NCBI GenBank assembly: GCA_964557845.1
Contig: CAZLBV010000215.1
Location: 3,582-67,581 of the forward strand
Origin: an uncultured Eubacteriales bacterium
Lineage (GTDB): Bacteria > Acidobacteriota > Aminicenantia > Aminicenantales > Aminicenantaceae
Reading direction: 5' to 3'
DNA: 64,000 bases
A model generated the notes under the pieces. The model was not told the origin of the DNA. It searched no databases and was given only the letters and a program-made list of their open reading frames with translations. Position numbers and translations under genes: made by a program. Shown here piece by piece: positions 26,566 through 63,091 of this stretch; within the stretch, counting starts at the first letter, position 1, and the number at the start of each line of letters is the position of its first letter.

Positions 26566-27048
26566 CTATTTTTTTCTTTGATCAAAATTGTCTAACCATC
26601 CAATTCGGATATTTTCCTTCCTGTCTCTGTCCGTATAGGGTTTGATGTCGAGAACCGGTGTGCCGTCGAGCATATCTATGCCTGAGACAGAGATGATATT
26701 CTTTTTTATATCCAATAAACGGGCTACAGTCATTCCTATCGGATTAGGCCGATGAGGGCTGCGGGTCGCGAACACTCCCCGTTTTTTCCCATCAAAAGGC
26801 GGATTAGCGTGTAGTTTATCCACTTGTTGGCTATGATGGAAAGCAAAGATCAAGATAATATGAGAAAAACCTTTCAGATCCTTAAGGCCGTTTACATATT
26901 CCTCAAGGACTTCGACTTGACCAACTATGTCTTCATAACCAGAGGGATCCGTATTCTTTTTAGAGGGGATATCTTCCTTCTTTTTATATTTAGAATGAAC
27001 GAATCCGATCGGTTTAAACTTGAAGTCACCTTGATTTGATTTAATCAT
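26566..27048 (-). CDS. trmO: tRNA (adenine37-N6)-methyltransferase TrmO/TsaA (YaeB family)
   Basis: 160 aa with RSPHRPNPIGMTVARL and DGTPVLDIKPY, the hallmark motifs of the YaeB/TsaA family. Confidence 0.8.
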   Translation of the reverse strand: MIKSNQGDFKFKPIGFVHSKYKKKEDIPSKKNTDPSGYEDIVGQVEVLEEYVNGLKDLKGFSHIILIFAFHHSQQVDKLHANPPFDGKKRGVFATRSPHRPNPIGMTVARLLDIKKNIISVSGIDMLDGTPVLDIKPYTDRDRKENIRIGWLDNFDQRKK

Positions 27049-28006
27049 ATATCATTGTCAGCCATTTGTGGAACTTCGGGATCTTGCCTTGAACAACATT
27101 AAGGTATGTTTCCCTAATCTTTTGGGTTAATTCACCGCTTTTTCCGGTTCCGATCTTTATCTCTGATGGATTTTCAGCTTTCTCGGAGCCATCGGTTATC
27201 TGAATGATGGGAGTTACTTCTGCTGCGGTACCACAGAAGAATGCTTCGTCTGCTTCGAACAGCTCATTTTTTGTGATGGGGGCTACTTTCGTCTTAATTC
27301 CCATTTCTTCAGCCATCTCGAGGATGCTGGTACGTGTAATCCCCTCTAATATCGAAGCTGTTCTGTCATTAGTTTTTAATATTCCCTTATGGTAAATAAA
27401 AATATTCTCTCCTGGCCCTTCTGCGACATGTCCTTCCAAATTCAAAAAGAGCGCTTCATCAAACCCCTTCTCCCGCGCTGTCATTCCACAGATGGTAGAT
27501 TGAACATAAGCTCCCCCTAATTTTGCTCCCATGTCGAATTGGCTGTGGTGAATTCTTTTTTGGGGGAGAATATAAACATGAACCCCGGTGACGGCTTTGT
27601 CTCCCAAATATGCACCCCACTCCCAGGCGGCAACCAGAAGTTCCACCGGACAGAATTTTGGCGTGAGGCCTAAATTCCCGAAGGAGTAGAAAAGAAGCGG
27701 CCGGATATAGGCTGCTTTAAGCTGATTTTCTTTCATTATGGTTTTTATTATGGAAATTATTTCTTCTTTGGAATGCTGTACCTTCATTTTTAAAACAGAT
27801 GCAGAGTGAAAAAAACGGTCCATATGCTCAGATAAGCGGAATACAGCCGGCCCTTTCTCTGTCTCATAGGCGCGGATTCCCTCGAAAACAGAAGTCCCAT
27901 AATGAAGAGTATGGGTAAAAGGATGGACCGATGCTTTGGAAATTTCGTGGATTTCACCCTGGAACCAATACTTTTTCGCTTTGGGAAAATGGGATGAATC
28001 AAACAT
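27041..28006 (-). CDS. ilvE: branched-chain-amino-acid aminotransferase (fold-type IV PLP)
   Basis: 321 aa with SVFEGIRAYETEKG and the class-IV aminotransferase signature. The layout is IlvE-like. Confidence 0.85.
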   Translation of the reverse strand: MFDSSHFPKAKKYWFQGEIHEISKASVHPFTHTLHYGTSVFEGIRAYETEKGPAVFRLSEHMDRFFHSASVLKMKVQHSKEEIISIIKTIMKENQLKAAYIRPLLFYSFGNLGLTPKFCPVELLVAAWEWGAYLGDKAVTGVHVYILPQKRIHHSQFDMGAKLGGAYVQSTICGMTAREKGFDEALFLNLEGHVAEGPGENIFIYHKGILKTNDRTASILEGITRTSILEMAEEMGIKTKVAPITKNELFEADEAFFCGTAAEVTPIIQITDGSEKAENPSEIKIGTGKSGELTQKIRETYLNVVQGKIPKFHKWLTMIYD

Positions 28007-28059: not shown

Positions 28060-28629
28060 TTATTCAATGACTGTAAATTCCCACGCACAATAGACATCCG
28101 GAGGATGAGGATCAGGAGGGCAGGTTATACATCTGGTCTGTATTCTGGGATCGATGGTGCGGGCAAAACCGCTGTACTCAACGACCCCTACAGGCTTGCA
28201 GGGAAAATCCGGTAATCCCTTTCTTTTCCTAGCATCCTGGACCCTGCACTTGTTCATCCGGAAAACACAACTGTTTTTCTGGATGTCGATGACCTCCTGG
28301 ACGTTGATATGGGCATAGAGCCTGAATTTTAAAGCTTGAATTAAAGCAGGTATACCACCCCCTGGCTGGATATTAAGACGATTCATGATCCTTTTGGCTT
28401 CAATGACGGTAAAATCCTCCCAGGCTGTTTTGTCCAACTCCATCGCTGTTTCCATCCCGAATTTTTTTTCTGCAGCCTGAAACCATAATCCGTCATGGGC
28501 CAACCAGTTTTTAGCGGCGTCTTTAAGAAGTTCCCTTAATTCCTCCTTGGACATATCTTGGATTTCTTTCATTATTTCTCCTATGACCTGATTTTTATTG
28601 TTTACAGAAGTTCTTTCAGACCGGTTCAT
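28060..28629 (-). CDS. hypothetical cysteine-rich protein, co-transcribed with a radical SAM gene
   Basis: 189-aa ORF whose start overlaps the radical SAM gene end by 14 nt. The C-terminus is Cys/Pro-rich (CRVQDARKRKGLPDFPCKPVG...RCITCPPDPHPPDVYCAWEF). I recognise no family. Confidence 0.35.
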   Translation of the reverse strand: MNRSERTSVNNKNQVIGEIMKEIQDMSKEELRELLKDAAKNWLAHDGLWFQAAEKKFGMETAMELDKTAWEDFTVIEAKRIMNRLNIQPGGGIPALIQALKFRLYAHINVQEVIDIQKNSCVFRMNKCRVQDARKRKGLPDFPCKPVGVVEYSGFARTIDPRIQTRCITCPPDPHPPDVYCAWEFTVIE

Positions 28630-29563
28630 AATATTTTAGATTTTTATATATAACGATTTTTATTTTATTTTCTTGCAGGAGAGAATTCAATTCTTTTAGG
28701 ACCGCGTTTCTATGTTTCCCAAGGGATGAGGAAATATCTTCAAGAGTGACAGGCCTCCTTTTTACCATATCAAGAATTTGGCTGGCTATATTTTCCTGAT
28801 AAGGAGGCTGGTCTCCACCCTGGAATTCTGCGATGATTTCTGCTTTATCACCGAGAAATTTTTGAATTTCTTCTAACCGTGACCTGCTTATCGGTTGAGC
28901 TGTAATTTCAGCAGGTGGGCGAACTACCGTATTGAGATGGATTTTGTCCGGGCGGATTTTTTCTATGACTTTTTTTAATTTTAACAGATGAGTATGTGAG
29001 TCATTGACATTTTTGACAAAAAGGATCTCGAGCCATATTTTACCATTGTATTGCTTTCTGAATTCAATCAAACCTGATAAGATCTCTTTAAGTTCAAGTT
29101 TAGGGTGAGGGCGGTTAATCTGTAAAAATACATCCTGAGAGGCCGCATCCAATGAAGGAACGACCAGGTCTGCCTTCTTTAAGTCCTGCCTGACTTCTTC
29201 TTGAGAAAGGAGAGTACTGTTAGTTAAAACAGCAACCGGAATATCAGTAAATGCTTTGATATTAGTTATCAATTCTCCAATTATTTTATTGAGAGTGGGT
29301 TCTCCTGAACCTGAAAAAGTAATGTAGTCGATATGGTGCCCAGTTTCGATGGCTTTCTTTATGCCAGCTAGAATTTCTTTTATAGAAAAGTATTTTTTTC
29401 TTTCTACAGTCTTTTTAGGGGTCGTCCCCAACTGGCAGTAGATGCAATCCAAACTGCAGGTTTTATATGGCAAGATATCTATTCCTAAAGAATAACCTAA
29501 CCTGCGTGAAGGTACTGGTCCATAAATGAATGTCTTTAGGTTTTTATTTTTAATTTTAGTCAC
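28616..29563 (-). CDS. radical SAM enzyme (CxxxCxxC) of a subfamily with an N-terminal YGPVPSRRLG motif and a C-terminal winged-helix-like tail; function unknown
   Basis: 315 aa with the radical SAM cluster motif CSLDCIYC after GPVPSRRLGYSLGIDI. A paralog with the same architecture lies at 59993-60943. Confidence 0.8.
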   Translation of the reverse strand: MTKIKNKNLKTFIYGPVPSRRLGYSLGIDILPYKTCSLDCIYCQLGTTPKKTVERKKYFSIKEILAGIKKAIETGHHIDYITFSGSGEPTLNKIIGELITNIKAFTDIPVAVLTNSTLLSQEEVRQDLKKADLVVPSLDAASQDVFLQINRPHPKLELKEILSGLIEFRKQYNGKIWLEILFVKNVNDSHTHLLKLKKVIEKIRPDKIHLNTVVRPPAEITAQPISRSRLEEIQKFLGDKAEIIAEFQGGDQPPYQENIASQILDMVKRRPVTLEDISSSLGKHRNAVLKELNSLLQENKIKIVIYKNLKYYEPV

Positions 29564-29645: not shown

Positions 29646-30116
29646 TTAAATTTTTCTGTATTGTTTTTTCCAGGGTGATTTCTTTTGATAGAGATAATCA
29701 GCCAAAGCCCGGCGTAGTGTTTCCGATGCCAATTGAGCGCAGTGGATGTTTTCTTCGGGAAGCCCTCCCAGCTCTTTCAAAATAACATCGGCACTGATGG
29801 AGGCAAGAGCCTGGTTGAAGGTTTTGTCTCTTGAGAGTTCCGAAACCACACTTCCACAAGCCAAAGTAGCTCCACAACCATCGGTAAGAAAAGTGCATTT
29901 GCTTATTCTGTCATCCTGAAATTTTAAAAAAATTTCCATAGTATCTCCACAGGATCCAGTTACCTTTGCATATCCATCAGGCTGCTCCAGTTTTCCCAGA
30001 TTAAGAGGATGGAGCCACAGATTGATAACCTTATCGGTATAGATCTGTCTGGCTTGCTCCATGATCTGCTCCTGAAGCTGCTGCGTTATTTTTTCTAATT
30101 CCTCGTCTTTATCCAT
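29646..30116 (-). CDS. IscU/NifU-N-like Fe-S cluster scaffold protein
   Basis: 156 aa with the three scaffold cysteines in conserved contexts: GSCGDTMEIFL, TDGCGATLACGS and HCAQLASE. Confidence 0.8.
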   Translation of the reverse strand: MDKDEELEKITQQLQEQIMEQARQIYTDKVINLWLHPLNLGKLEQPDGYAKVTGSCGDTMEIFLKFQDDRISKCTFLTDGCGATLACGSVVSELSRDKTFNQALASISADVILKELGGLPEENIHCAQLASETLRRALADYLYQKKSPWKKQYRKI

Positions 30117-30408: not shown

Positions 30409-31281
30409 TTACTTTTTTTGTCTCTTTTGCAACTCAGCGGTTATAAAATCCCTCAATTCTTGTATAGAGAATCCATAACTCTTTCTTAATCTGCCCAGGT
30501 GGTCAAACTCTGAAACATTTGCAGGCAATCCCATTCCCTGGATAATGGTTTTTGTGTTTATTCCGGTTTTTAATTCTATGTCTCTTAAACACATCTGCCC
30601 TGTGATCACAATGCCGGATGTATCTTCCTCCAGCCTTCCATGAACGAGCTTATCTTCATGTTCCTGGGTTTCTTCGTGAAGGTGGACAGCTGGATAACTC
30701 TCAGATTTCACCTCAATTTCTTTTTCTGGTTTCTGCTGGTTATTGGCTGCTCCAGATAAAGACTTTTCCGAGCTCTTACCAGGTACGGATGCTTTTTTTT
30801 GCTGTTCGATAATCGAAGGGGCAGGAGAAGGCACCGGGGCAGGGATCGAAGTCGCAGCCGGCACACTTTGCTCAACAATTCTGGACCTCCCAAATTCTCC
30901 GTTTCTTCTTCCATAGTTGGAATACAAAGGAGAGTCCTTAGGCATGAATGCCCAGATAAAAAAAATGGTAAAAAAAGCAGCTGCTACGGTAAGGCCGATA
31001 ATTAGAGGGGCCTTATTTTTAAATAGACGGCGTGACTGCGCTTTAATCCAGCTCCATTCAAGGATCAGATGAATAATGACTAATGCTGTGAATGCTAGGG
31101 ACAAAATTAGATGAATGTCGCCCCATTGATGCCGGTGCAGACCTAAAAAATATTTTCCCTGGTCATTGACTGTCGGTCCTTCTGCGAGAAAGAAAGCCAT
31201 CAGTATTCCTATAACTGCTATTCCAAAAAGAAATATGAAAAGAAAAGTATCTACCAGATATTTCCATATGTTTTTATTCAT
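30409..31281 (-). CDS. membrane protein with an N-terminal DUF4405-like His-rich transmembrane domain and a C-terminal soluble domain
   Basis: 290 aa with three TM helices and conserved histidines (HRHQWGDIHLILSLAFTALVIIHLILEW), typical of DUF4405 putative haem/cytochrome-b-like modules. A Pro/Ser-rich linker follows, then a C-terminal domain of unknown family. Confidence 0.45.
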   Translation of the reverse strand: MNKNIWKYLVDTFLFIFLFGIAVIGILMAFFLAEGPTVNDQGKYFLGLHRHQWGDIHLILSLAFTALVIIHLILEWSWIKAQSRRLFKNKAPLIIGLTVAAAFFTIFFIWAFMPKDSPLYSNYGRRNGEFGRSRIVEQSVPAATSIPAPVPSPAPSIIEQQKKASVPGKSSEKSLSGAANNQQKPEKEIEVKSESYPAVHLHEETQEHEDKLVHGRLEEDTSGIVITGQMCLRDIELKTGINTKTIIQGMGLPANVSEFDHLGRLRKSYGFSIQELRDFITAELQKRQKK

Positions 31282-31313
31282 GGTGGCCCTCCTTTCATTG
31301 TTTTTGTTATCTA

Positions 31314-32186
31314 TTAATTATCCACATTTTTTAGATTAAGCCAAATTTCTTTTATCTCATTGGCAAGGTCAGAATTAGGAAGTTCTGGAATAGGGATGCC
31401 TTGAGTGACAGCTTTAATCGCATCTTCTGAATAGGAGATTTTTCCTAAAATTTTGATGTTGTTTTTTTGACACCAAGTAATGATTCCGTGTGTGTTTTGC
31501 TTATTTATGTCGTATTTATTGATAATACAGGCAGTTTTGATTTTAAAATATTTGGATGTCTCGATAACTCTTTCCATATCATGGACCGCAGAAAGAGTGG
31601 GCTCAGTGACCACAACCGCTAAATCAACTCCGGAAAGAGAAGCGATGACTGGGCAGCCTATTCCGGGAGGCCCGTCGATAAGGACCCAATCCAAATTGCC
31701 CGACTCTGCGATCTCTCTGGCTTTTTCTCTAACCAGTGAAACAAGTTTTCCGGAATTTTCTTCCCCGGGATACAGCCGGGCATGAACAAAGGGGCCGTAT
31801 TTTGTTTGAGAAATATACCATTCTCCGCAAACCGCAGGTTTCATTTCGATCGCCTGTACAGGACAAGATAAGGCACAAACTCTGCATCCTTCGCATGAAA
31901 AAGGATCTATAGAAATTTTTCCTTCATCGGAAGAGTGAATGGCATCGAACCGGCATAAACTCACACAAGCACCGCAGTATGTGCATTTTTCTTCATTGTA
32001 AACGGCTTTTTCTCCGCTTGTAAATGTGTGTGTTTCTTTGATCTCAGGATGGATCATTAAATGCAGATTGGCTGCATCAACATCACAGTCAGCGAGTACT
32101 TTCTTTTCTGCAAGGGAGGCAAAGGCAGCGGTCACAATTGTTTTCCCAGTTCCGCCTTTTCCGCTGATAACAACTATTTGCTTCAC
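31314..32186 (-). CDS. MinD/ParA-superfamily P-loop ATPase with inserted 2x[4Fe-4S] ferredoxin domain (CooC-like, COG1149-type)
   Basis: 290 aa with a deviant Walker A (GKGGTGKT) and two CxxCxxCxxxCP motifs (CTYCGACVSLC, CEGCRVCALSCP) inserted in the ATPase fold. Confidence 0.75.
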   Translation of the reverse strand: MKQIVVISGKGGTGKTIVTAAFASLAEKKVLADCDVDAANLHLMIHPEIKETHTFTSGEKAVYNEEKCTYCGACVSLCRFDAIHSSDEGKISIDPFSCEGCRVCALSCPVQAIEMKPAVCGEWYISQTKYGPFVHARLYPGEENSGKLVSLVREKAREIAESGNLDWVLIDGPPGIGCPVIASLSGVDLAVVVTEPTLSAVHDMERVIETSKYFKIKTACIINKYDINKQNTHGIITWCQKNNIKILGKISYSEDAIKAVTQGIPIPELPNSDLANEIKEIWLNLKNVDN

Positions 32187-32217
32187 TTCTTTTCCTTATT
32201 TTAAATATTATCGAGAT

Positions 32218-33099
32218 TCATCTCTTGGTTAGATTGTCGGTCTGAATTTTAATCTTGTATTTTAAGCTGTCATAGAGTTCTGAGAATTTGGTCTTAAAAC
32301 TTGGATCTATATCAATCAAGGCTTCTCCTTTAGAGTAAGCTTCTGCTATTTTTCTGTCCAATGGAATTTCCATGATTAAGGGAATGTTTTCCTTCTGACA
32401 GTATTCATGAATGATCTCATCACCTGTTCTTGCCCGGTTTAAGATCACACTAAAGGGAATGCCCATTTGCCTGAGAGTATCAACTGAGAGCTTGAGATCA
32501 TTTAAACCAAAAGGAGTCGGTTCTGTGACAAGAAGGGTGTGATCGCTGCCCTTAACTGTTTCGACCATAGGACATGATGTGCCGGGTGGAACATCCAGGA
32601 TCACATCTTGTTCGTGGTCGATCATTTTTTTCATCTGCCGGATCAACGGAGGAGACATTGCCTGGCCCACATCCAATTTTCCTGATAGAAAAAATATGTT
32701 TCCGGCATGACCTGATTTGATCACTCCGATTCTTTTGCCAATTTCTTTTATTGCGTTTTCAGGACAGAAAAGTTTACATGCCCCGCAGCCATGGCAGAGT
32801 TCAGGAAAGGTAAGAACGCTTTCTTTGAGTACGGCCAAGGCATTATAAGCACAGACTTCAGCACAGCGCCTGCAGTAGGTGCATTTATTATCATCAATTT
32901 CAGGAATAGGCAGGTAAGAGATTTTTTCTTTCTCAAATTCTGCTTTTATGAAAAAATGGGCATTTGGTCCTTCTACATCACAATCTAAAAATTGCAGCTT
33001 CTGATCTGCTGAAATGGAAAGAGCTATATTTACAGCAACCGTTGTTTTACCCGTTCCTCCTTTACCGCTGGCAATGGAAAGGATCATTAAATACTCCAA
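32218..33099 (-). CDS. MinD/ParA-superfamily P-loop ATPase with inserted 2x[4Fe-4S] ferredoxin domain (paralog)
   Basis: 293 aa with GKGGTGKTT, CTYCRRCAEVC and CHGCGACKLFCP. It is the tandem paralog of the downstream gene. Confidence 0.75.
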   Translation of the reverse strand: MEYLMILSIASGKGGTGKTTVAVNIALSISADQKLQFLDCDVEGPNAHFFIKAEFEKEKISYLPIPEIDDNKCTYCRRCAEVCAYNALAVLKESVLTFPELCHGCGACKLFCPENAIKEIGKRIGVIKSGHAGNIFFLSGKLDVGQAMSPPLIRQMKKMIDHEQDVILDVPPGTSCPMVETVKGSDHTLLVTEPTPFGLNDLKLSVDTLRQMGIPFSVILNRARTGDEIIHEYCQKENIPLIMEIPLDRKIAEAYSKGEALIDIDPSFKTKFSELYDSLKYKIKIQTDNLTKR

Positions 33100-33800
33100 A
33101 CGCTTCCGGCGCCGAGTTCAAGAAAATCATCCTTATACTCTTCTTTAAAGAGAGTTCGGGCTTCTAGTCCCGAGCAATGGGTCGGCCCCACTTTTTCTAT
33201 TCCCTCTCTTTTAAATAAACGAATGATCTCTTTGATCTCTCGGTCTTCAAATCCACCTAAATGGAATCCCCCAAAGACCATATAAATATTTTTCTGGAAT
33301 TGTTTTTTAGTAAGATCGATTATGTTTGTGATCCGTGGGTGGGCGCATCCAGTTATAAGAATCAAACCTTTATTGGTTTCTAAAATCAGGGATTGCTCTT
33401 TTATCCATCCGTTTATGACGCCGGTTGTAAAGGCTCCAGGTGATAGGTTTTGAGGGCCAGTGATGTAAACCGGGCAGCTTCTGGCATCAGTAACGGCTTT
33501 TTTTATTTTATTTGGAAAAAAATCAGGAATAAATACAGTTACATCGGAGTTTACTGCCAAGAATCCCTCTAAACCCCCTGTGTGATCGAAGTGTTCATGA
33601 GAGAGAAATATTTGATCTACCATTCCAGGCGATTTTCCCAACTTGTTTATATTATCCAGCAAGATTTTATGTTTTGCCCCGGTGTCGAAGAGTATGGTTT
33701 TTTCCATTCCTTGGATCAGGCAGGAAAACCCCCAATCTGTAGCGAATTCTGTTTTATAAGCAATATTGTCATAGAGAATTGAGAAGGTTAATGGAGACAT
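33087..33800 (-). CDS. MBL-fold metallo-hydrolase
   Basis: 237 aa with the HxHxDH motif (LSHEHFDHTGG) and later His/Asp ligands (GCAHP, GGFHLGG). Confidence 0.7.
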   Translation of the reverse strand: MSPLTFSILYDNIAYKTEFATDWGFSCLIQGMEKTILFDTGAKHKILLDNINKLGKSPGMVDQIFLSHEHFDHTGGLEGFLAVNSDVTVFIPDFFPNKIKKAVTDARSCPVYITGPQNLSPGAFTTGVINGWIKEQSLILETNKGLILITGCAHPRITNIIDLTKKQFQKNIYMVFGGFHLGGFEDREIKEIIRLFKREGIEKVGPTHCSGLEARTLFKEEYKDDFLELGAGSVWSI

Positions 33801-33857
33801 CTCTTATTGGCCTTAAAATTCTGATTAGATTTAATATGATAATTATTTATTCAACTC

Positions 33858-35060
33858 TCATTCAACAACAGCTAGGGCCTGCTCCAGGTCTGCCTCAAGA
33901 TCTTCATATCCTTCACAACCCACTGAGATGCGGATCAGATCATCTGTTATCCCTGCTTCCAATTTATCTTTCCTCGAGACATTTGCATGAGTCATACTAG
34001 CCGGATGTTGGATAAGGGTTTCAATTCCTCCCAGGGAAACCGCAAGGGTACATAATTTAACTGAGTCGATGAATTTTCTACCGGCATCTAACCCGCCTTT
34101 CAAGCCAAAACTGATAAGAGCACCGAAACCACGCATTTGTTTTTTTGCCAGTTTGTGTTGGGGATGGCTTTCCAAACCAGGATAGTTTACCCAGGCTATT
34201 TTTGGATGATTCTCAAGATAAGTGGCCAGTTTCATGGCATTATCCTGGGATTTCTCTACCCTGAGTGCTAAGGATTTTACTCCCCGTAAGACCAACCATG
34301 CTTGATGCGGGTCCATGTTACCACCCAGAAGGGAGAGAGCTGACCTGAGTTTATTATAAAGTTCTTCGTTTTTGGGAATAATTATTCCGCCTACTATATC
34401 TGAATGGCCGTTGATAAATTTAGTAACACTGTGGTAAACAATATCGGCGCCCAATTCCAGGGGATTTTGAAGATGTGGGCTGGCAAAAGTATTGTCAACC
34501 ACCAGCAGAAGGCCTTTAGAATGGGCTAGCTTTGCACAAGCCTCGATATCTGAAATAATCATGGTTGGATTAGCTGGAGTCTCGATAACAATAAGTTTAG
34601 TATTTGTTTTAATAGCGGATTCAATTTTTTTTGTATCCGAGGTATCCACATAATCGAAACTGATGCCGAATTTGTACGCTAATTTTTCAACCAGGACTCG
34701 AGAAGCCCCATAAACAGAAGCTGTGCTTATCATGTGTGAATTTTGTTCTAATAGACCAAAAAGCAGTGTAGATAGAGCGGACATCCCTGATGAGGTAGCC
34801 ATGGCCCCGTAGCCCTGTTCTAAATAGGCTATATTGTCCTCCAAGGCTCTTATTGTGGGATTACCCATTCTGGTATAGATATATCCTTCTTCTTCTCCGG
34901 CAAACCGGGCTGCGCCCTGCCGGGCATTTTTAAATGCAAAGGTAGACGATTGATAAATGGGTGTCGATACACCCCCAAATACTGGGTCTGGATGTTGAGC
35001 GGCATGGATAACACTGGTATGCCTGCTTTTCATTTTAATATCAGTCACATTTTCCTCCAT
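33858..35060 (-). CDS. Cys/Met-metabolism PLP enzyme (methionine gamma-lyase / cystathionine gamma-synthase / O-acetylhomoserine sulfhydrylase family)
   Basis: 400 aa with PLP-lysine in SVTKFINGHSD and trans-sulfuration-family motifs. The real start is possibly the internal Met at ~35033 (MKSRHTSVIH). Confidence 0.8.
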   Translation of the reverse strand: MEENVTDIKMKSRHTSVIHAAQHPDPVFGGVSTPIYQSSTFAFKNARQGAARFAGEEEGYIYTRMGNPTIRALEDNIAYLEQGYGAMATSSGMSALSTLLFGLLEQNSHMISTASVYGASRVLVEKLAYKFGISFDYVDTSDTKKIESAIKTNTKLIVIETPANPTMIISDIEACAKLAHSKGLLLVVDNTFASPHLQNPLELGADIVYHSVTKFINGHSDIVGGIIIPKNEELYNKLRSALSLLGGNMDPHQAWLVLRGVKSLALRVEKSQDNAMKLATYLENHPKIAWVNYPGLESHPQHKLAKKQMRGFGALISFGLKGGLDAGRKFIDSVKLCTLAVSLGGIETLIQHPASMTHANVSRKDKLEAGITDDLIRISVGCEGYEDLEADLEQALAVVE

Positions 35061-35211
35061 AAAATTTAACTAAGCGATATTAATAAATATAATAATTTCT
35101 GGCTTAAGAGATATTATAATACCGTTTTTAATCTCTGCGGCAGGATCTTTTGTCGAAACATATTTAGAAAATTCCACCACAGTTTTGGCATTCGTATCTG
35201 CAGATAGGAAG

Positions 35212-35397
35212 CTACCTTCCCCGGATCATCTTGGAACCGCATTTAGGGCAGGTTAATTCAAAACAGGGTTTTCCAGGTTGATGAGAAATTTTGTGTCCGC
35301 ATTTAGGGCACACACATGAACCGCCTGGCCCAAGCCCCTGTCCTCCGCCTAATCCTCTACCTCCTTGCCCATTAGGATCTCCGTTCGAATTGGACAT
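35212..35397 (-). CDS. small Gly-rich zinc-ribbon protein
   Basis: 61 aa with a Gly-rich N-terminus (GQGGRGLGGGQGLGPGG) and two CPKCG knuckles (CVCPKCGH...CPKCGS). Its position inside the conserved island supports it being real. Confidence 0.45.
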   Translation of the reverse strand: MSNSNGDPNGQGGRGLGGGQGLGPGGSCVCPKCGHKISHQPGKPCFELTCPKCGSKMIRGR

Positions 35398-35412
35398 GAT
35401 TTTCTCCTCTTT

Positions 35413-35853
35413 TCAGTTATAGGCTTCCATTATCTTTTTGTCTTCATTCATGAGATAATCCAGTTCTTTTCTGAATTTATCATCCCAAAAATTAAGCTTG
35501 TTATGAATTTCAAGATATTTCAGGGGAATAGGATGGGTTCCAATAACAACAGGGACTCCGTACTGAGTTTCAATGTATTCTTTGAATTGAAATAGATAGG
35601 GACAAGGTGGGTACCCGACCACCAAACCAGTGGCCAGATGAATGACTTCTGCGCCATTTTTTATCATTTCTTCTGGAACATATTCAATATTCCCCCCCGG
35701 GCATCCCCCGCAATAGGAATATCCTACGACCTCTATTTCTTCATCTTTTGGATAACGAGCAAAACCTCCGGTCCGTTCCCGGACGGAACGGAAGCATTTC
35801 CCGCCACCGCATAACTGATAGCGTCCACATATTATGATGCCGATTTTTTTCAT
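35413..35853 (-). CDS. CGGC-domain protein
   Basis: 146 aa with MKKIGIIICGRY...CGGGKC and YCGGCPGG. I recall these as the CGGC-domain family signature. Confidence 0.55.
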   Translation of the reverse strand: MKKIGIIICGRYQLCGGGKCFRSVRERTGGFARYPKDEEIEVVGYSYCGGCPGGNIEYVPEEMIKNGAEVIHLATGLVVGYPPCPYLFQFKEYIETQYGVPVVIGTHPIPLKYLEIHNKLNFWDDKFRKELDYLMNEDKKIMEAYN

Positions 35854-35874
35854 TTTATTTCCTATTATTATTAA

Positions 35875-36681
35875 TTAATTTTTTCCGGTAGATTCCAAGA
35901 TCCTTTCAGCGACTTCGAGAAAAGCCTTGGCTGTTTCTGACTCGGCAGTATCTTCTAAGAACGATTTGCCAATGTCGCCGAGGATTACGATCTGAGGATC
36001 AATGGGAATTCTTCCCAGAAAAGGAACACCCAATTCGCCAGCGGCTGTTTCGCCTCCGCCCTGTTTAAAAAGGTCGATCTTTTTACCACAATGGGGGCAG
36101 GTCAATCCGCTCATGTTTTCTATGATTCCATACACCTGTAAATTCAATTTGCGGGCAAAGGCGACTGCCTTTCTTGAATCCATAAGAGAAACCTCTTGTG
36201 GGGTTGTAACCACAACTGCGCCGCTAGCAGGAATCAACTGGGCTACTGAAAGAGGTTCATCTCCTGTGCCTGGAGGCGAGTCGATAATCAGCCAATCAAG
36301 GTTTCCCCAATCAACGTCTCCAAGAAACTGCTGGATGGCTTTCATCTTCATAGGCCCCCGCCAAATTACGGGGAGATCAGGGCTTTCGAGTAAAAAAGCC
36401 ATAGATACGAGCTTTAAATTCTTATCCACCTGAACAGGTTTAATTCCGTTAGGTGAAACATCAAGCCGTTTCGTCTCAACGCCCAGCATTTTTGCCAGGT
36501 TGGGCCCATGAATATCTACGTCTAATAATCCAACTTCTAATCCTTTTTTTTCAAAGGCATAAGCGAGGTTGGCAGCTACTGTGCTTTTCCCAACTCCTCC
36601 TTTTCCACTGAAAACAAGAAGTCGGTTTTTGATTTTTTCTAAAGCTTTCTTGATTTTTTCTGATTCATTTTCGTTTGGCAT
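35875..36681 (-). CDS. Mrp/NBP35/ApbC-family Fe-S cluster carrier ATPase
   Basis: 268 aa with Walker [18 protein letters not shown] and the conserved CPHCG cluster-binding motif. Its ATG overlaps the stop of the upstream NifX-like gene (ATGA-type overlap at 36679-36683). Confidence 0.85.
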
Positions 36682-37400
36682 TATTCTTCTCTTTCCATGA
36701 AGTTTTCAAGGACATCTTTTACCTTTCCTGAGACTCCTGTGATCATTTTAATTCCGGATTCCTGCAACACTTTATCTGCATTGGGTCCAAAGTCTCCGGT
36801 CATAACAAGTGATGGATTTTTTTCGGCAATAAATTGGGCTGCTTTAATTCCAGCGCCATGAGCAGTATCTATATATGGATTGGAGATCGCTTCAACCTGA
36901 TCTGAACCAGGTGTCAAAAATAAGAAATATTGGGCTCTTCCGAATTTCGGATCAACCTCGGAATCAATGGTGTTTCCCAGTGCAGTAATACATATCTTTG
37001 TACGGGTATCATGAGACAGGGATTGATGTTCGTGATGTTTAGGATGTCCTTGATTCATATGGCGTTCGCTCCCGTGATCGCAAAGGTCTTCTCCAGGTTT
37101 CAGTTGGCCTAGCCTATATTTTTCGATAACTTCGTCGATCGGGCCTTGGACACCTATGATCGTTTGAATATTCTTTTTTCTAAACAATTCCTGGGCACGG
37201 GGGCCCATCCCACCGGTAATGATGAGATTGACCCCTCGCGCACTTAAAAATTCTGGTAGAAACCCTGGTTGGTGACCCGGATTATCAATTTCTTCTTTTT
37301 GGGAGATCCGGTTATCTTCTATGTCAACTATTGTATACTTCGAACACCGCCCAAAATGGGCGGCAACAAAACCATTCTCTGTAGAGACTGCAATTTTCAT
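36681..37400 (-). CDS. tandem fusion of two dinitrogenase FeMo-cofactor-binding (NifX/NafY/NifB-C-like) domains joined by a His-rich linker
   Basis: 239 aa. Domain 1 starts [29 protein letters not shown]. The His-rich linker reads [18 protein letters not shown]. Domain 2 starts [27 protein letters not shown]. Confidence 0.7.
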
Positions 37401-37460
37401 TCAAACCTCTTTATCATGATTCAGGGTATACTTTTTATCTTAGAAATTCAACATCAATAT

Positions 37461-37805
37461 TTATTTTGCTTTTTCTTCTTTTTCAATTTTACTGATTCTT
37501 TCTGAGAGATCTTTTAGCTCCTTTTCCATTAGGTCTTTTTCCTGTTTCAAATATCCGAGTTCTTCTTCTTGTGACATCGAAGGGGCACCTGCTCCATAGG
37601 GGTACCCTGGATAACCATAACCATAGCCATAAGGATTATATCCTCCCATTGGGTATCCCCAACCGTAACCTCTTCCGTATCCGCGTCCAAATCCGTATGA
37701 CATATAACCCGGGTAAGTATATCCTGCGCAAAATCCTCTTGCACGGCCTGTCATAGATCCGAAGCCCCAAGGTCCTGTTCTATCGCCTCCTGGCATTTTC
37801 TTCAC
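37461..37805 (-). CDS. small Gly/Tyr-rich low-complexity protein with a C-terminal coiled coil (DUF5320-like)
   Basis: 114 aa. MPGGDRTGPWGFGSMTGRARGFCAGY is followed by GYG/YGY low-complexity repeats and then EEELGYLKQEKDLMEKELKDLSERISKIEKE. This matches my recollection of the DUF5320 architecture, which is commonly adjacent to NifX-like/Mrp genes. Confidence 0.5.
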   Translation of the reverse strand: MKKMPGGDRTGPWGFGSMTGRARGFCAGYTYPGYMSYGFGRGYGRGYGWGYPMGGYNPYGYGYGYPGYPYGAGAPSMSQEEELGYLKQEKDLMEKELKDLSERISKIEKEEKAK

Positions 37806-37810
37806 CTCCT

Positions 37811-38257
37811 TTATTGGCAGTTTTTACATAGACCGATAAATTCAATATTATGGTCCAATATCTTAAAAGAAAATTTAGCTTCCAATTTTTTTTCTGCTTT
37901 ATTGATAAATTCTAATTCTTCTTCAACGAATTCTCTGTAATCAATTATTTTGCCGCAGTTGGAACAGATCAAATGGTGATGATGATCAGATTTTTTTCCT
38001 GATCTGAATTCATATCTATTCTGTCCATCACCGATAGAAATTGTTTGTATCATTCCTGTTCGAGACAGTAAATCTAGTGTCCGGTATACTGTGGTAAGCC
38101 CCAGGCCAGGATAGATTTTTATCAATTCGCTATAGATGTCCTTGGCACTTAAATGCTTATTTGTCCGGATGAGCAGATCTACGATCGCCTGACGGGGTGC
38201 TGTCCACCTGCATACCTGTCCTCTGAACCGATGATGCCATTTGTTTGCTTTATACAA
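37811..38257 (-). CDS. fur: Fur-family metalloregulator (Fur/Zur/PerR)
   Basis: 148 aa with an N-terminal winged helix, HHHHLIC-x-CG and a C-terminal CxxC (LCKNCQ). Confidence 0.8.
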   Translation of the reverse strand: MYKANKWHHRFRGQVCRWTAPRQAIVDLLIRTNKHLSAKDIYSELIKIYPGLGLTTVYRTLDLLSRTGMIQTISIGDGQNRYEFRSGKKSDHHHHLICSNCGKIIDYREFVEEELEFINKAEKKLEAKFSFKILDHNIEFIGLCKNCQ

Positions 38258-55382: not shown

Positions 55383-56132
55383 ATGCTGGAGCTCAGAAAT
55401 TTTAGCGTGTCTATTGGAGAAAAGGAAATTGTTCATGATGTTAATATTACCATCAAAAGTGGAGAAACTCATACGCTGTTTGGACCTAACGGCAGTGGGA
55501 AGACCACTCTTCTTATGGCTATCATGGGATTTCCCAAGTATAAAGTGAATAAAGGTTCTATTTTATTTGATGGTAAAGATATTTCAGATTTATCTTTAGA
55601 TGAGCGAGCTCGCTTAGGTATAGGAATGTCATTCCAGAGGCCCCCTGTCGTCAAGGGAGTAAAAACTCGGGATATGGTTGCAGCATCCCTTGGGGATAAA
55701 CAGGAAGAAGCCGATAAAATTATTCTCGGACTGGCTGAAAAGGCTGATCTTGTGGATTTCCTTGATAGAGAGGTTAATTACGGTTTTTCCGGAGGAGAGA
55801 TAAAACGGTCCGAGCTCCTTCAGCTTCTGGCGCAAAAACCTAAGCTAGTTTTGCTTGATGAGCCTGAATCAGGAGTCGATCTAGTAAATATAGCCTTAAT
55901 CGGCAAACTTATTGATGAACTTCTGGAAAAAAACTGCCGTATCGTCGAGAGGAAATGCAGCGGTCTTATCATTACCCATACCGGTCATATCCTTGACTTT
56001 GTCAATGCCCGTACCGGTTATGTCATGTGTGATGGGCGGATAGGCTGTGAAGGGAATCCCCTTGAAATCCTTAAGACTATTAAGGAGAAAGGTTATGAGG
56101 AATGTATCAGATGCATGGTAAGGAGAAGATGA
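55383..56132 (+). CDS. sufC: Fe-S cluster assembly ATPase SufC
   Basis: 249 aa with Walker A GPNGSGKTTL, signature FSGGEIKRSELLQLL, Walker B LVLLDEPESGVD and D-loop/H-loop ITH. Confidence 0.9.
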   Translation: MLELRNFSVSIGEKEIVHDVNITIKSGETHTLFGPNGSGKTTLLMAIMGFPKYKVNKGSILFDGKDISDLSLDERARLGIGMSFQRPPVVKGVKTRDMVAASLGDKQEEADKIILGLAEKADLVDFLDREVNYGFSGGEIKRSELLQLLAQKPKLVLLDEPESGVDLVNIALIGKLIDELLEKNCRIVERKCSGLIITHTGHILDFVNARTGYVMCDGRIGCEGNPLEILKTIKEKGYEECIRCMVRRR

Positions 56133-56133
56133 A

Positions 56134-59992: not shown

Positions 59993-60943
59993 CTATAGTT
60001 TTCTCATATAATATTTATTCCCTTGATAGCTTAGCTCGATCAGTTTTTTTTCTTTGATCAGCCTTTCAACCGTATCCCAATCTTCCTGAGCTTTTTCCAA
60101 AAAGATCTTCATCGCTTCTTGCCTCATGGGATGTACGGATACGATACTTAAAAGATCCTCCTCCACATTTCCAGTGTAGGCAAAAGCGTTTCCCTCATAC
60201 CCAATAAGGTATTCTGTGCCGAGTTCCTGTTCCTTAAAGATCTGGTAGGCAGAATTAATATTATATTCTGTGGCAGGCTTCACCCATTCTTCGGCTGGAG
60301 GCCTGATCGGAATAGATATATAGCTTTTTTTGGGATTAAGGGTTTTTATAAAAGCTGCAGTTCTTTCGATTATTTCAGCTTTATCATTCATATCCTGTAT
60401 AAGCATGGTTTCAGTTACCAGGTCTCCTTTAAAAGATTTGGAAAACTCTCTGGCCCCATCCAAAATTGAATGAAGATCGAGCCCTTTGTGAGGCCGGTTG
60501 ACTGCATGCCACATATCCTCATCAACCGTGTCCATCTTCAAAGATACCCAGTGTGCCATGCTCAAGTCTTTTCGCACATCCTCCCTCCAAATTAAGGAAG
60601 CATTTGATATGACGGCGATCCTTCTGTCTGTTTTTCTAAGCTGTTCAATTTCCTTTCCCAGATTTTCATCCAGCGTTGGTTCTCCGTCAGGAACAAAAGT
60701 GAGGTAATCGATGGGCTCCTGGCTTTCTTGGGCTTTTTGGATCTTTGTTTTGACAGCTTCTACTACCTCATCCGGCTGATAAAAGGTTTGCCGTTTGATC
60801 TGCATATTTAGAGTTCTTCCTAGTTGACAGTATACACACGCGTATGTGCATATTTTAGGAGGAATATTATTTATTCCAATACTCTGTCCCAAACGCCTTG
60901 AGGGGACAGGACCATAAGCTATCATCGTTTTTTCATCAAGCAT
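59993..60943 (-). CDS. radical SAM enzyme, paralog of 28616-29563 (YGPVPSRRLG N-motif, CxxxCxxC, winged-helix-like tail)
   Basis: 316 aa with AYGPVPSRRLGQSIGINNIPPKICTYACVYCQLG. Its C-terminus ends ...LSYQGNKYYMRKL, and the paralog ends ...YKNLKYYEPV. Confidence 0.8.
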   Translation of the reverse strand: MLDEKTMIAYGPVPSRRLGQSIGINNIPPKICTYACVYCQLGRTLNMQIKRQTFYQPDEVVEAVKTKIQKAQESQEPIDYLTFVPDGEPTLDENLGKEIEQLRKTDRRIAVISNASLIWREDVRKDLSMAHWVSLKMDTVDEDMWHAVNRPHKGLDLHSILDGAREFSKSFKGDLVTETMLIQDMNDKAEIIERTAAFIKTLNPKKSYISIPIRPPAEEWVKPATEYNINSAYQIFKEQELGTEYLIGYEGNAFAYTGNVEEDLLSIVSVHPMRQEAMKIFLEKAQEDWDTVERLIKEKKLIELSYQGNKYYMRKL

Positions 60944-60959: not shown

Positions 60960-61619
60960 TTAAATGGGCCATTCTTGTTTATGATAAACCGCCTCCCAAA
61001 ATAAAAATTCATATCTGCTTGCGGCCGTGAATACGTATTTTAATCTACCATATGGGCACTCTTCTCCGGCTTTATTAACCAGAGTTTGTATCTTTTCTAC
61101 CAGATTGAGGTAGGAATCAGTGAGATAGACATTTCCCCAGTCTTGGTATAGTTGAATTTTGTTGGTTCTTAAACTTTCCCGGTGGTGGCCGGCGATCTCA
61201 GCATAAGACCAGAAACAAGGAAGAACTGCAGTCATTGCTTCAGCATATGATTTCAAAGAGCTGGTAGTCAGGAGAAAACTGCTGTAGGAGAGATTTATAG
61301 GAATAGGATCAATTTCTGAGGCATCTGTTAGAGTGTAGCCGAGCCTTTCCACTAGTTTTTCGTATCCGTCGAATTCGCTGGTGGCTTCCAGGTTGAGTAT
61401 GTTAATGATCTCTCTCATGGCTTCAATGGAAGGCGCTTTGGAGGCGATAATTGCGAAATTTTTCATAGCTGCGACAAGATAGTGATAATCTTGCAGGATG
61501 TAAAATTTGAATTTTTCCAGGGGGAGATCCCCTTTGAATAATTCCACCACAAAGGGATGCTCGAATATTTTATTCCAGATAGGAGCTGCATCTTTTCTCA
61601 GCCGGCCAGATAGACTCAT
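60960..61619 (-). CDS. tenA: TenA/Thi-4-family aminopyrimidine aminohydrolase (thiaminase II)
   Basis: 219 aa with N-terminal W...HPFV..L..G.L....F..Y..QDY.YL, which is the TenA signature. A catalytic Cys candidate is present (LPCFWSY). Confidence 0.7.
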   Translation of the reverse strand: MSLSGRLRKDAAPIWNKIFEHPFVVELFKGDLPLEKFKFYILQDYHYLVAAMKNFAIIASKAPSIEAMREIINILNLEATSEFDGYEKLVERLGYTLTDASEIDPIPINLSYSSFLLTTSSLKSYAEAMTAVLPCFWSYAEIAGHHRESLRTNKIQLYQDWGNVYLTDSYLNLVEKIQTLVNKAGEECPYGRLKYVFTAASRYEFLFWEAVYHKQEWPI

Positions 61620-63091
61620 GATTTTCTTCCCTGAACGACTACATAATCACCTTTGTCATAGCCTTCCACTGGTTCTTCCAGTTCATCATTGGTGTATTTG
61701 GGATGTTTTGTCAAGGTCTGTACAAATTTCAGATCCTTGAAACCTGCTTGCTTTAATAAGGAGATTGTTTCTCCAGTGGAAAGCCATCGGGTCCCTCGGA
61801 TAAATTTGACTGGATAAGGATATTTGGGGGAAATTTCCGGGTCATGCCGTCCGCGAAGATAGGCCAGATCATACATCATGGCATAAGAGCCTTCTCTAGT
61901 TAAATAAGAAATGACCACATGCCCTCCAGGTTTGAGAATACGGTAGGCCTCGTAGACCGCCTGCTGCGGATCTTTGGCATAGCTTAAAATAGTGCTCAGC
62001 AGGACCGTATCAAACATCCCGTTAGGAAAGGGTACCTTCTCGGCAGTTCCGATCTTAACTTCGATTCCTCTTTTTCTCGCCAGATCAGCCATTCCTTTGG
62101 CGGGTTCGACTCCATATTTTATTCCCAGTTTTGAAGCAAATAAACCGCTTCCTACCCCGATACTTATAGCCTTTCCGGGATTTTTTAAAAATTGCTTTTC
62201 TGCCAGAAGCTCCGAATCAAAAATAATCCGGTTTTTATCAAACCAGGCATCAAAATCCCCGGCTTCTTCTTCAAAAGCCGATGGCTGGAGAGGTTCAATT
62301 TTATGGTACAGGGGACCGTTTCCTGATCCAAGATTATCGGGAGCATTTTTAATGGCACGGAAAATATAATCTTTGGCAGCTTCGATCGAGTTATGGATAT
62401 TCATCCCCTTGGCTAAGCCAGCGGTTATGGCGGCAGAGTAGGTGCATCCAGTTCCGTGGGTATTAACCGTATCGATTCTTTCAGATCTAAAATAATGATA
62501 AGAGCCCCCATCAAACAGAATGTCAACCGCCTCTTCTTCCTGAAGATGCCCTCCTTTCAGAAGCACATAGCGCGGGCCTTTTTTATGGATGATTTTAGAG
62601 GCTCTCTGGGCATCTTCGATATTCTTGATCGAGATCCCGCTGATTATTTCCGCTTCAAGGACATTAGGAGTGACAAGATAAGCAATCGGCAGTAATTCTT
62701 CGATCAAGGATTTTTCTGCCTCTTTCTGCAGAAGACGGTCGGAGCTTTTGGCCACCATCACCGGATCGACCACCAAAATATTCAGTCCATATTTTTTTAT
62801 TCTGTCTACAATGGTCTCTATTATTTCTTGATTGGAAACCATTCCTGTTTTTATCCCGTTGGGGCTGATATCTTTGATTACAGCATCAATCTGAGCACCG
62901 ACTATTTCTGCAGGGATATCGTGGACAGCGTACACTCCTTTTGTATTTTGGGCGGTTACAGCGGTCAGCACCGACATCCCATAAACACTGAACGCATGAA
63001 ATGTTTTCAGATCAGCTTGTATGCCTGCGCCGCCCCCTGAATCAGAACCTGCAATGGTAAGTGCTTTTCCCTCATAATTCATTTTTCTCAC
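61616..63091 (-). CDS. thiD: fusion protein: hydroxymethylpyrimidine/phosphomethylpyrimidine kinase ThiD (N-terminal ~265 aa) + class I SAM-dependent methyltransferase domain (C-terminal ~220 aa)
   Basis: 491 aa. The ThiD part carries LTIAGSDSGGGAGIQADLKTF, the ribokinase-fold anion hole GTGCTYSAAITAGLAKG and DVDPVMVAKS-like motifs. The C-terminal part has MTase motif I (ISIGVGSGLFASKLG), motif II (VLLST) and a post-II region. The gene overlaps tenA by 4 nt. Confidence 0.8.
   Translation of the reverse strand: MRKMNYEGKALTIAGSDSGGGAGIQADLKTFHAFSVYGMSVLTAVTAQNTKGVYAVHDIPAEIVGAQIDAVIKDISPNGIKTGMVSNQEIIETIVDRIKKYGLNILVVDPVMVAKSSDRLLQKEAEKSLIEELLPIAYLVTPNVLEAEIISGISIKNIEDAQRASKIIHKKGPRYVLLKGGHLQEEEAVDILFDGGSYHYFRSERIDTVNTHGTGCTYSAAITAGLAKGMNIHNSIEAAKDYIFRAIKNAPDNLGSGNGPLYHKIEPLQPSAFEEEAGDFDAWFDKNRIIFDSELLAEKQFLKNPGKAISIGVGSGLFASKLGIKYGVEPAKGMADLARKRGIEVKIGTAEKVPFPNGMFDTVLLSTILSYAKDPQQAVYEAYRILKPGGHVVISYLTREGSYAMMYDLAYLRGRHDPEISPKYPYPVKFIRGTRWLSTGETISLLKQAGFKDLKFVQTLTKHPKYTNDELEEPVEGYDKGDYVVVQGRKS

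Follow-up and report, generated by a model that had tools for sequence, protein, structure and literature searches.

The window analyzed here, a 64,000-nt stretch of DNA, carries two genes for radical SAM proteins on its minus strand, rSAM1 (28616..29563, 315 aa) and rSAM2 (59993..60943, 316 aa), which share the same signature and architecture. The open reading frames are those given in the original prediction (28060-28629, 189 aa as a longest ORF; 28616-29563; and 59993-60943, all on the minus strand), and the two enzymes are indeed paralogs, aligning over their full length with 33% identity (E 5e-57). The unusual N-terminus that had been noticed in both, a GPVPSRRLG element preceding the CX3CX2C motif, is common to their homologs as well, and the winged helix proposed for the C-terminus is present in the family. 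In rSAM1, these landmarks are located at residues 15-23 (GPVPSRRLG), C36/C40/C43 (CX3CX2C), 87-91 (GEPTL), and ∼255-315 (winged helix). GPVPSRRLG is found in 119 of 120 rSAM1-type and 111 of 119 rSAM2-type homologs, CX3CX2C is kept in all 120 and all 119, respectively, and the distance between the two elements is invariant at 21 residues. A second conserved cysteine set is absent from both groups of homologs, with no cysteine conserved outside CX3CX2C. The winged helices of rSAM1 and rSAM2 contain no cysteines, and the total per protein is 3-5 in most members.

The proteins score above the gathering threshold of PF04055 and have a partial TIM-barrel fold, which places them in the radical SAM superfamily. 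In structural comparisons, their compact core is similar to that of PFL-AE and viperin. The subfamily could not be named when the genes were first noted, and the NCBIfam and Pfam scans bear this out, as no subgroup model is above cut-off for either paralog. No NCBIfam subgroup scores higher than 54 bits, where cut-offs of 284-380 apply; therefore, no subfamily is assigned. The MoaA model (TIGR02666) reaches 54 bits against 284, and the C-terminal auxiliary-cluster cysteines of MoaA are absent, the C-terminus here being the Cys-free winged helix. Prokaryotic viperin (NF038283) gives 46.5 and 38.8 bits against 180, and the glycyl-radical activases are equally to be rejected (PflA, TIGR02493, 33.8 against 231.75; NrdG, TIGR02495, 27.6 against 131.15). 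While PFL-AE (PDB 3c8f) and viperin-like enzymes are the closest in shape, their identity to rSAM1/rSAM2 is only 14-21% and their curated models remain far below cut-off. The GPVPSRRLG hairpin and the winged helix are additions relative to them, and neither a glycyl-radical enzyme nor a nucleotide-related setting is seen around the family. Searching the PDB with single sequences and with profiles returned weak generic radical SAM matches only, none of them close, and a literature search found nothing on DUF6125, COG0731, or the GPVPSRRLG motif.

The Cys-rich protein encoded next to rSAM1 is a DUF6125 protein (PF19620), scoring 279 bits against a gathering threshold of 27 over profile positions 2-163 of 164. 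A 14-nt overlap with the 28616-29563 gene, and with it translational coupling, had been proposed, but this claim holds only if translation begins at 28629, the start of the longest ORF, where no Shine-Dalgarno sequence is present. An AGGAG lies at 28582-28578, with a 5-nt spacer before the ATG at 28572, and homologs of DUF6125 are ∼170 aa long with an N-terminus that corresponds to the Met encoded there. Therefore, a 170-aa protein (28060..28572, minus strand) preceded by a 43-nt spacer (28573..28615, read directly from the sequence) after the rSAM1 stop codon (TGA 28618-28616) is likely, rather than an overlap. On these sequence features, ATG 28572 is most likely the true start and the claimed overlap an artefact. 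Close coupling of the two genes is nevertheless real in relatives, of which L004 and L095 show 4-nt overlaps and L002 and L096 gaps of 8-10 nt.

The predicted model of DUF6125 shows whole-domain similarity to the V4R/H-NOX/Bet3 ligand-binding fold. Identity to the structures and families compared (DmpR 6iy8, PoxR 5fru, H-NOX, Bet3/TRAPPC3, and ATC_hydrolase) is 7-14%, and searches of the PDB with a single sequence and with a profile found no solved relative. ATC_hydrolase (PF14196) scores 25.3 bits on the protein, below its gathering threshold of 28.1, and a precomputed PF14196 match exists in some DUF6125 homologs; judged from these scores, the kinship is at the superfamily level only. Conserved residues are C109, C125, C148, C162, R115, and W164, with C151 variable, and all four conserved cysteines fall in the C-terminal half. 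In the V4R sensor domains of MopR and PoxR, a cysteine cluster binds zinc. More generally, V4R and ATC-hydrolase domains have a conserved cysteine cluster that is a predicted or known zinc binder (PMC5847659). DUF6125 differs from these in having four cysteines rather than the three described for the V4R/ATC hydrolase cluster, and in standing alone at 170 aa, without the regulator output domain of the V4R phenol sensors.

As the original prediction stated, an IscU-like scaffold gene accompanies rSAM1: NifU_N (29646..30116, minus strand; PF01592, 90.5 bits) is found 82 nt upstream of rSAM1, in the same orientation. No terminator-like site occurs between these genes, nor between rSAM1 and the co-directional DUF6125 gene. 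An adjoining NifU_N gene is present at 12 of 22 Aminicenantes-type and 2 of 6 WOR-3 rSAM1-type loci, and in L088 an rSAM2-type gene has NifU_N on either side. Downstream of DUF6125 are a class IV, BCAT-like aminotransferase (27041-28006, minus strand; PF01063, 151 bits) and a TrmO-family protein (26566-27048, minus strand; TrmO_N 128 bits, TIGR00104 139.5 bits), which recur there in 19 and 16 of the 22 Aminicenantes-type loci, respectively; TrmO is absent from the WOR-3 loci.

Upstream of rSAM1, Pfam matches reveal a co-directional, Fur-headed metal/Fe-S array (30409..38257, minus strand) containing Fur, DUF5320, tandem Di-Nase proteins, an Mrp/NBP35 ParA, CGGC, a Cys/Met PLP enzyme, MBL, two CbiA+2xFer4 (Orp3/4-like) proteins, and DUF4405. 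The array recurs in L002, L004, L095, and L096. Its Orp3/4-like, Di-Nase, and Mrp/NBP35 components recall the Desulfovibrio ORP complex, whose composition is taken from PMC6345978. The Desulfovibrio genes are headed by a sigma-54 activator instead of Fur, and the text of that paper does not mention "radical SAM". The array is context of the rSAM1-DUF6125 pair, and the link of its ORP-like genes to the radical SAM gene is positional only.

We surveyed DUF6125 in 80 species-level loci, 76 of them evaluable, looking for a radical SAM gene within 8 kb. All 30 of the adjoining radical SAM genes found are rSAM1-type, being 46-62% identical to rSAM1 as against ∼33% to rSAM2. They accompany DUF6125 in 18/20 evaluable Aminicenantes-type genomes (L010 and L039 are Aminicenantes loci without one) and in 12/12 WOR-3/Stahlbacteria-type genomes. 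The flanks of the pair differ between these groups, NifU/BCAT/TrmO in the former and Nudix::PanD/DUF89 in the latter. When sampled from the radical SAM side, five distinct rSAM1-type loci all have DUF6125 next downstream, at junctions of 4-nt overlaps or 8-43 nt gaps. The partnership between the radical SAM enzyme and the Cys-rich protein is therefore backed by tight adjacency that is kept in two phyla with different flanks. The stronger expectation that the Cys-rich protein always accompanies an enzyme of this family is not supported: it is borne out at the rSAM1-type loci sampled, but DUF6125 was never found beside rSAM2-type genes, and it stands alone in most other lineages. No radical SAM gene lies within 8 kb in the Anaerolineae (17 loci), the Desulfuromonadales and other delta-type genomes (17), the Asgard archaea (4), and others, which leaves 46/76 evaluable species with DUF6125 among unrelated neighbours. 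Identity of DUF6125 across phyla is 62-77%, the Asgard archaeal copies included. Being conserved in lineages without an adjacent radical SAM gene, DUF6125 does not need one.

These observations suggest, tentatively and at slightly less than even confidence, that rSAM1 and DUF6125 make up a two-gene module restricted to certain lineages, probably acting on a small molecule, to which a methyltransferase is added as a third gene in some Aminicenantes. Functional coupling of the pair, which is read from gene adjacency alone, is put forward with the same reserve. The principal alternative is that there is no such coupling, with DUF6125 an autonomous, highly constrained housekeeping protein that has rSAM1 upstream by inherited or co-transferred synteny in two lineages. 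We regard this as unlikely, though deserving of real weight. It accords with the many loci where DUF6125 has unrelated neighbours and no radical SAM gene, with the high identity extending to Asgard archaea, and with the difference in GC content between the DUF6125 gene (45.6%) and rSAM1 (37.1%), but it does not readily account for the persistence of the pair in Aminicenantes and WOR-3 despite their different flanks, for the presence of DUF6125 in every rSAM1-type locus sampled from the radical SAM side, or for the 4-nt overlaps.

The other alternatives retain a coupling of some kind or treat DUF6125 as incidental. The family could modify RNA or tRNA in the manner of TYW1 or RlmN, with the winged helix binding nucleic acid and the methyltransferase and TrmO as pathway partners. 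TYW1, RlmN, and Cfr are among its structural and sequence neighbours, a TrmO-family gene is nearby in the 16/22 Aminicenantes-type loci and in L091, where it lies near an rSAM2-type gene, and homologs bear the JGI label COG0731 "wyosine synthetase". That label is a best-hit artefact: the TYW1 model (TIGR03972/COG0731) gives 31.7 and 26.4 bits where 317.95 are required, and RlmN/Cfr models score 17-35 bits against 290-550. With only three to five cysteines in most members, the family lacks the auxiliary Fe-S cluster cysteines of TYW1/Taw1 and the two extra catalytic cysteines of RlmN/Cfr. Wyosine synthesis is not known from bacteria, the hosts of rSAM1 and rSAM2. Together with the WOR-3 loci that lack TrmO, these results make an RNA-modifying role improbable. 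Just as improbable is a role for rSAM1 as a maturase or activase that modifies DUF6125, by analogy with PFL-AE-type enzymes, whose target is a folded protein: DUF6125 has no conserved glycyl-radical-type loop (its GGG at 71-73 is not kept family-wide), it is equally conserved where no radical SAM gene is present, and the activase models are far below cut-off (33.8 against 231.75). Finally, a Fe-S cluster on C109, C125, C148, and C162 that would make DUF6125 a reductant or, as first suggested, an auxiliary-cluster subunit of rSAM1 fits the four cysteines and the Fe-S-rich, Fur-headed array beside the IscU-like gene, but is the least probable reading of all because the fold is V4R/H-NOX/Bet3 and not ferredoxin-like, the cysteines of that superfamily bind zinc (predicted or known; PMC5847659), and DUF6125 is common without an adjacent radical SAM gene.

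rSAM2 belongs to a separate orthogroup, with orthologs 62-88% identical in Acidobacteriota, Thermoplasmata, Omnitrophica, and Auribacterota; a metagenome scan with rSAM2 gave 2 close loci only. Thiamin genes do stand beside it, as had been noted. TenA (thiaminase II; 60960..61619, minus strand; TIGR04306, 133.6 bits, cut-off 130) is located between rSAM2 and a ThiD (HMP/HMP-P kinase; 61616..63091, minus strand; TIGR00097, 344 bits, cut-off 205) that is fused to a class-I SAM methyltransferase domain (∼residues 265-491). However, this context is kept only in the close relatives L087 and L091, where the order ThiD::MTase-TenA-rSAM2 is repeated. The 64,000-nt window contains no Rfam match to a TPP riboswitch or any other RNA element, and the literature search found nothing relevant on tenA/thiD or ArsP together with radical SAM.

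A class-I methyltransferase is a recurrent neighbour of rSAM2-type genes. The ThiD-fused domain shares 31-39% identity along its entire length with stand-alone methyltransferases, both those beside rSAM2-type genes (L090, L093) and those beside rSAM1-DUF6125 (L004 and others). Members of this family occur downstream of DUF6125 in eight or nine loci of Aminicenantes, directly in L004, L005, L007, L012, L013, L018, L020, and L022, and ∼1.4 kb further downstream in L014. ORP-like genes flank rSAM2-type genes in L088, L089, and L094. In other genomes, rSAM2-type genes neighbour a SAM methyltransferase and ArsP-family permeases, an arrangement that resembles the ArsL/ArsM/ArsQ arsinothricin cluster. 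ArsL has 428 residues with CX3CX2C at 194-201, and ArsQ is a gluconate-permease type transporter (PMC8552651). With 315-316 residues and CX3CX2C at 36-43, rSAM1 and rSAM2 have a different architecture, and the cysteines conserved in ArsM are missing from the methyltransferase; we therefore dropped the arsinothricin reading.

Returning to the two-gene module, superfamily membership suggests that rSAM1 would be a single-[4Fe-4S] radical SAM enzyme, with the cluster on C36/C40/C43 and GEPTL contacting SAM, and that reductive cleavage of SAM would yield a 5′-deoxyadenosyl radical that attacks the substrate. The IscU-like scaffold encoded on the same strand and the upstream ORP/Mrp-like carriers would probably supply the cluster. 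In DUF6125, the most likely role of the four cysteines is to build a structural metal site, probably for zinc; the protein may hold a ligand for rSAM1 or act on the product of that enzyme, possibly by hydrolysis as in the ATC hydrolases, its distant relatives. The neighbouring genes in three lineages give a loose hint of CoA, pantetheine, or branched-chain acyl metabolism, a theme of guilt by association across different lineages. rSAM2 would work without DUF6125, recurring with the same methyltransferase family.

A broader scheme, which we consider a long shot, is that the family and the class-I methyltransferase carry out an undescribed radical reaction in anaerobic bacteria and archaea. The rSAM1 branch might then have recruited DUF6125 as a substrate-binding or ring-opening subunit, for instance for a CoA/pantetheine-derived or thiazoline-type metabolite, and the rSAM2 branch might make a methylated product that is handled by ArsP/ZIP-type transporters or one that the ThiD::MTase fusion links to the thiamin pyrimidine.

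If the rSAM1-DUF6125 module is merely syntenic, the finding is an ordinary one. The GPVPSRRLG family is very widespread, with at least 8000 candidates in each of both searches and >60% identity between bacterial and archaeal members, yet it is unstudied and has no curated subgroup or close solved structure. It now has a defined signature, which combines GPVPSRRLG with one cluster and a winged helix at the C-terminus, and two separated orthogroups. Its recurrent partners, namely DUF6125, a single methyltransferase family with occasional fusion to ThiD, IscU/ORP-like genes, and ArsP/ZIP transporters, are concrete co-expression targets for radical SAM enzymologists, and the link to rSAM1 would be the first functional handle on DUF6125.

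The two radical SAM proteins with the GPVPSRRLG signature, rSAM1 (28616-29563, minus strand, 315 aa) and rSAM2 (59993-60943, minus strand, 316 aa), are the only members of their family that the family HMM detects in the window, and they align over their full length with 33% identity (E 5e-57). These two ORFs and that of the Cys-rich protein adjoining rSAM1 (28060-28629, minus strand) are all present as first described, and the winged-helix-like tail ascribed to both enzymes holds. The nearest database relatives carry the label Candidatus Aminicenantes. Homologs fall into two separate orthogroups, and the signature is found in 119/120 rSAM1-type and 111/119 rSAM2-type sequences at a constant 21 residues ahead of CX3CX2C. 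Further invariant positions include GEPTL, N115, D139, P152 in NRPH, ND at 187-188 and RPP at 215-217. Most members contain no more than three to five cysteines per protein, so that an auxiliary cluster is absent.

The original prediction had left the subfamily unassigned, and this stands. In Pfam both proteins match the general PF04055 model only, and in the NCBIfam scan every model is far below its cut-off, as seen with the tungsten-cofactor maturase (54.6 bits vs 380), MoaA (54 vs 284), prokaryotic viperin (46.5 vs 180), PflA (33.8 vs 232) and TYW1 (31.7 / 26.4 vs 318) models. Therefore, the name wyosine synthetase (COG0731) that JGI gives to homologs reflects a best hit and does not denote membership. 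Sequence searches of the PDB gave weak generic matches only, and Foldseek again returned PFL-AE/viperin-like neighbors, at 14–21% identity. The pair is an uncharacterized variant inside the radical SAM superfamily, with a partner previously unremarked.

That partner belongs to Pfam DUF6125 (279 bits vs a gathering score of 27) and has a single copy in the window; its ATC_hydrolase match is subthreshold (25.3 vs 28.1). An exhaustive HMMER search yields 925 representatives at 50% clustering, and our literature search found no paper naming the family. C109, R115, C162 and W164 do not vary among diverse members, conservation at C125 and C148 is 90% or higher, and C151 of the CxxC pair is frequently substituted. 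This pattern fits the conserved cysteine cluster common to the related ATC hydrolase, V4R and H-NOB domains (PMC5847659), and we infer that the fold is of a ligand-binding kind and that the cysteines form a metal site, probably for zinc. The protein is unusually conserved, at 62–77% identity across phyla, Asgard archaea included. The GC content of its gene (28060-28572), at 45.6%, exceeds that of rSAM1 (37.1%) and that of the window (40.4%). Conservation and composition together point to very strong constraint or horizontal spread.

The longest ORF of the DUF6125 gene encodes 189 aa, and its 14-nt overlap with rSAM1 had been read as translational coupling. The overlap is not borne out at this locus. 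Nearly all homologs are 168–175 aa long, cover 89% of the query and start at Met20; the corresponding ATG at 28572 is preceded by AGGAG (28582-28578, 5-nt spacer), a site that the upstream ATG at 28629 lacks. Since the rSAM1 stop is the TGA at 28618-28616, the two genes most likely stand 43 nt apart, with a separate ribosome-binding site in the spacer. One gene caller, however, annotated the 189-aa product on a Logan contig of identical sequence, so the 28572 start is a strong inference, short of proof. Relatives show tighter spacing, with 4-nt overlaps at two loci and gaps of 8–10 nt at two others.

A scan with one genome per species found a DUF6125 relative in at least 577 species, and the best 80 loci were compared. 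In 30 of these 80 the gene immediately upstream belongs to the rSAM family, and all 30 are rSAM1-type, being 46–62% identical to rSAM1 and ∼33% to rSAM2. The Aminicenantes-type loci have it in 18 of 22, with NifU_N, BCAT, DUF123 and TrmO as neighbors; two of the 22 lack upstream sequence, and the enzyme is truly absent from the loci we call L010 and L039. WOR-3/Stahlbacteria-type and similar unlabelled loci have it in 12/12, beside a Nudix::PanD fusion and a DUF89 phosphatase. It is upstream in none of 17 Anaerolineae loci, 17 Desulfuromonadales and other delta-type loci, 4 Asgard loci or the other lineages; neighbors are acyl-CoA enzymes in the delta-type loci and inconsistent in the rest. 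From the rSAM side, DUF6125 is next downstream in 5/5 distinct rSAM1-type loci sampled and in none of the rSAM2-type loci from other lineages, so that in these loci the Cys-rich protein accompanies one type of the enzyme only. Because DUF6125 often occurs without rSAM, the tie appears to be one-way: rSAM1-type is tied to DUF6125, and DUF6125 is not tied to rSAM.

Several features of these loci may be recorded. The Nudix::aspartate-decarboxylase (PanD) fusion precedes rSAM1-DUF6125 at 12 WOR-3/Stahlbacteria-type loci, often with the DUF89/ARMT1-like phosphatase, and L039 retains a Nudix-DUF89-DUF6125 order without the rSAM. Twelve Desulfuromonadales loci, including that of cultured Geothermobacter hydrogeniphilus, carry DUF6125 with no rSAM nearby and with enoyl-CoA hydratase, acyl-CoA dehydrogenase, CoA-transferase III, a PaaK-like ligase and a Liv-type ABC transporter as neighbors. 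Eleven loci from "uncultured Eubacteriales" MAGs show Aminicenantes-type synteny and DUF6125 at 70–77% identity; the taxonomic labels of those records are probably wrong.

The neighbors of rSAM2 include TenA and a ThiD domain, in agreement with the thiamin-salvage setting first proposed. This ThiD forms one protein with a class-I SAM methyltransferase as a fusion (61616-63091, minus strand), and the order ThiD::MTase-TenA-rSAM2 recurs at two other loci. The whole window (1-64000) has no Rfam match at the gathering threshold, and thus no TPP riboswitch ahead of thiD-tenA-rSAM2. Just 3' of rSAM2 is a class-A beta-lactamase-like serine hydrolase (58867-59877, minus strand), which at 108 bits vs a cut-off of 200 is not a confirmed beta-lactamase. 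Orthologs of rSAM2 in other lineages (62–66% identity) have different neighbors: a stand-alone class-I methyltransferase (three loci), ArsP_1 (split) or ArsP_2 permeases (five), ZIP transporters (three), ORP-like genes (three) and a second small radical SAM gene overlapping the start of the rSAM2-type gene (two). The ArsP, ZIP and second-rSAM surroundings look like a metal- or metalloid-related context. The architecture of ArsL from the arsinothricin cluster (PMC8552651) differs from that of the enzymes here, and ArsM was rejected as the identity of the methyltransferase, as its conserved cysteines are absent. The fused domain is 31–39% identical over its full length to stand-alone ones at an rSAM2-type locus (L090) and a DUF6125 locus (L004), and the same family lies directly 3' of DUF6125 at eight loci. 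Its presence by rSAM1-DUF6125 or rSAM2-type genes elsewhere suggests a family-level rSAM-methyltransferase partnership.

On the minus strand, the series 38257->26566 comprises Fur, DUF5320, a tandem Di-Nase, an Mrp/NBP35 ParA, CGGC, a Cys/Met PLP enzyme, MBL, two CbiA+2xFer4 proteins, DUF4405, NifU_N, rSAM1, DUF6125, BCAT and TrmO. No terminator-like site was found between NifU_N, rSAM1, DUF6125 and BCAT. The Fur-headed, co-directional part directly 5' of NifU_N-rSAM1 (30409-38257), also seen in other Aminicenantes contigs, corresponds in domain content to the anaerobe-specific ORP complex genes, in which Orp3/Orp4 receive Fe-S clusters from an Mrp/NBP35 protein (PMC6345978). On the plus strand (55383-57366), SufC-like ABC ATPase and SufBD-core genes, in that order, make up a minimal SUF/SMS-type Fe-S assembly pair, so that the window encodes both this pair and the IscU-like scaffold NifU_N.

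Of the readings considered, the best supported is a lineage-restricted module: the single-cluster rSAM1 would work together with a V4R-fold Cys4 protein, DUF6125, of ligand-binding or hydrolase type. The methyltransferase may be an additional member in some genomes, the adjoining IscU/ORP-like genes could supply Fe-S clusters, and the target would probably be a small molecule. The chemistry is deduced from radical SAM superfamily membership, and the coupling from a tight adjacency that persists while the flanks change between phyla. This persistence counts against the main rival, namely, that DUF6125 is autonomous and its adjacency functionally meaningless, a view that accords with the many DUF6125 genes lacking an rSAM. 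Smaller rivals are that the rSAM performs protein maturation of DUF6125, that DUF6125 has an Fe-S or electron-donor role, or that the rSAM modifies RNA. For the module, associations hint at CoA, pantetheine or branched-chain acyl metabolism as substrate leads: the Nudix::PanD fusion and DUF89 at WOR-3 loci, a DUF89 domain being able to remove phosphate from 4'-phosphopantetheine (PMC9352595); BCAT at Aminicenantes loci; and acyl-CoA enzymes by DUF6125 in Desulfuromonadales. The original prediction, a duplicated radical SAM subfamily with a coupled Cys-rich partner, is confirmed in part as an observation and supported in part as an interpretation, and the finding provides useful leads on the radical SAM pair and its partner.
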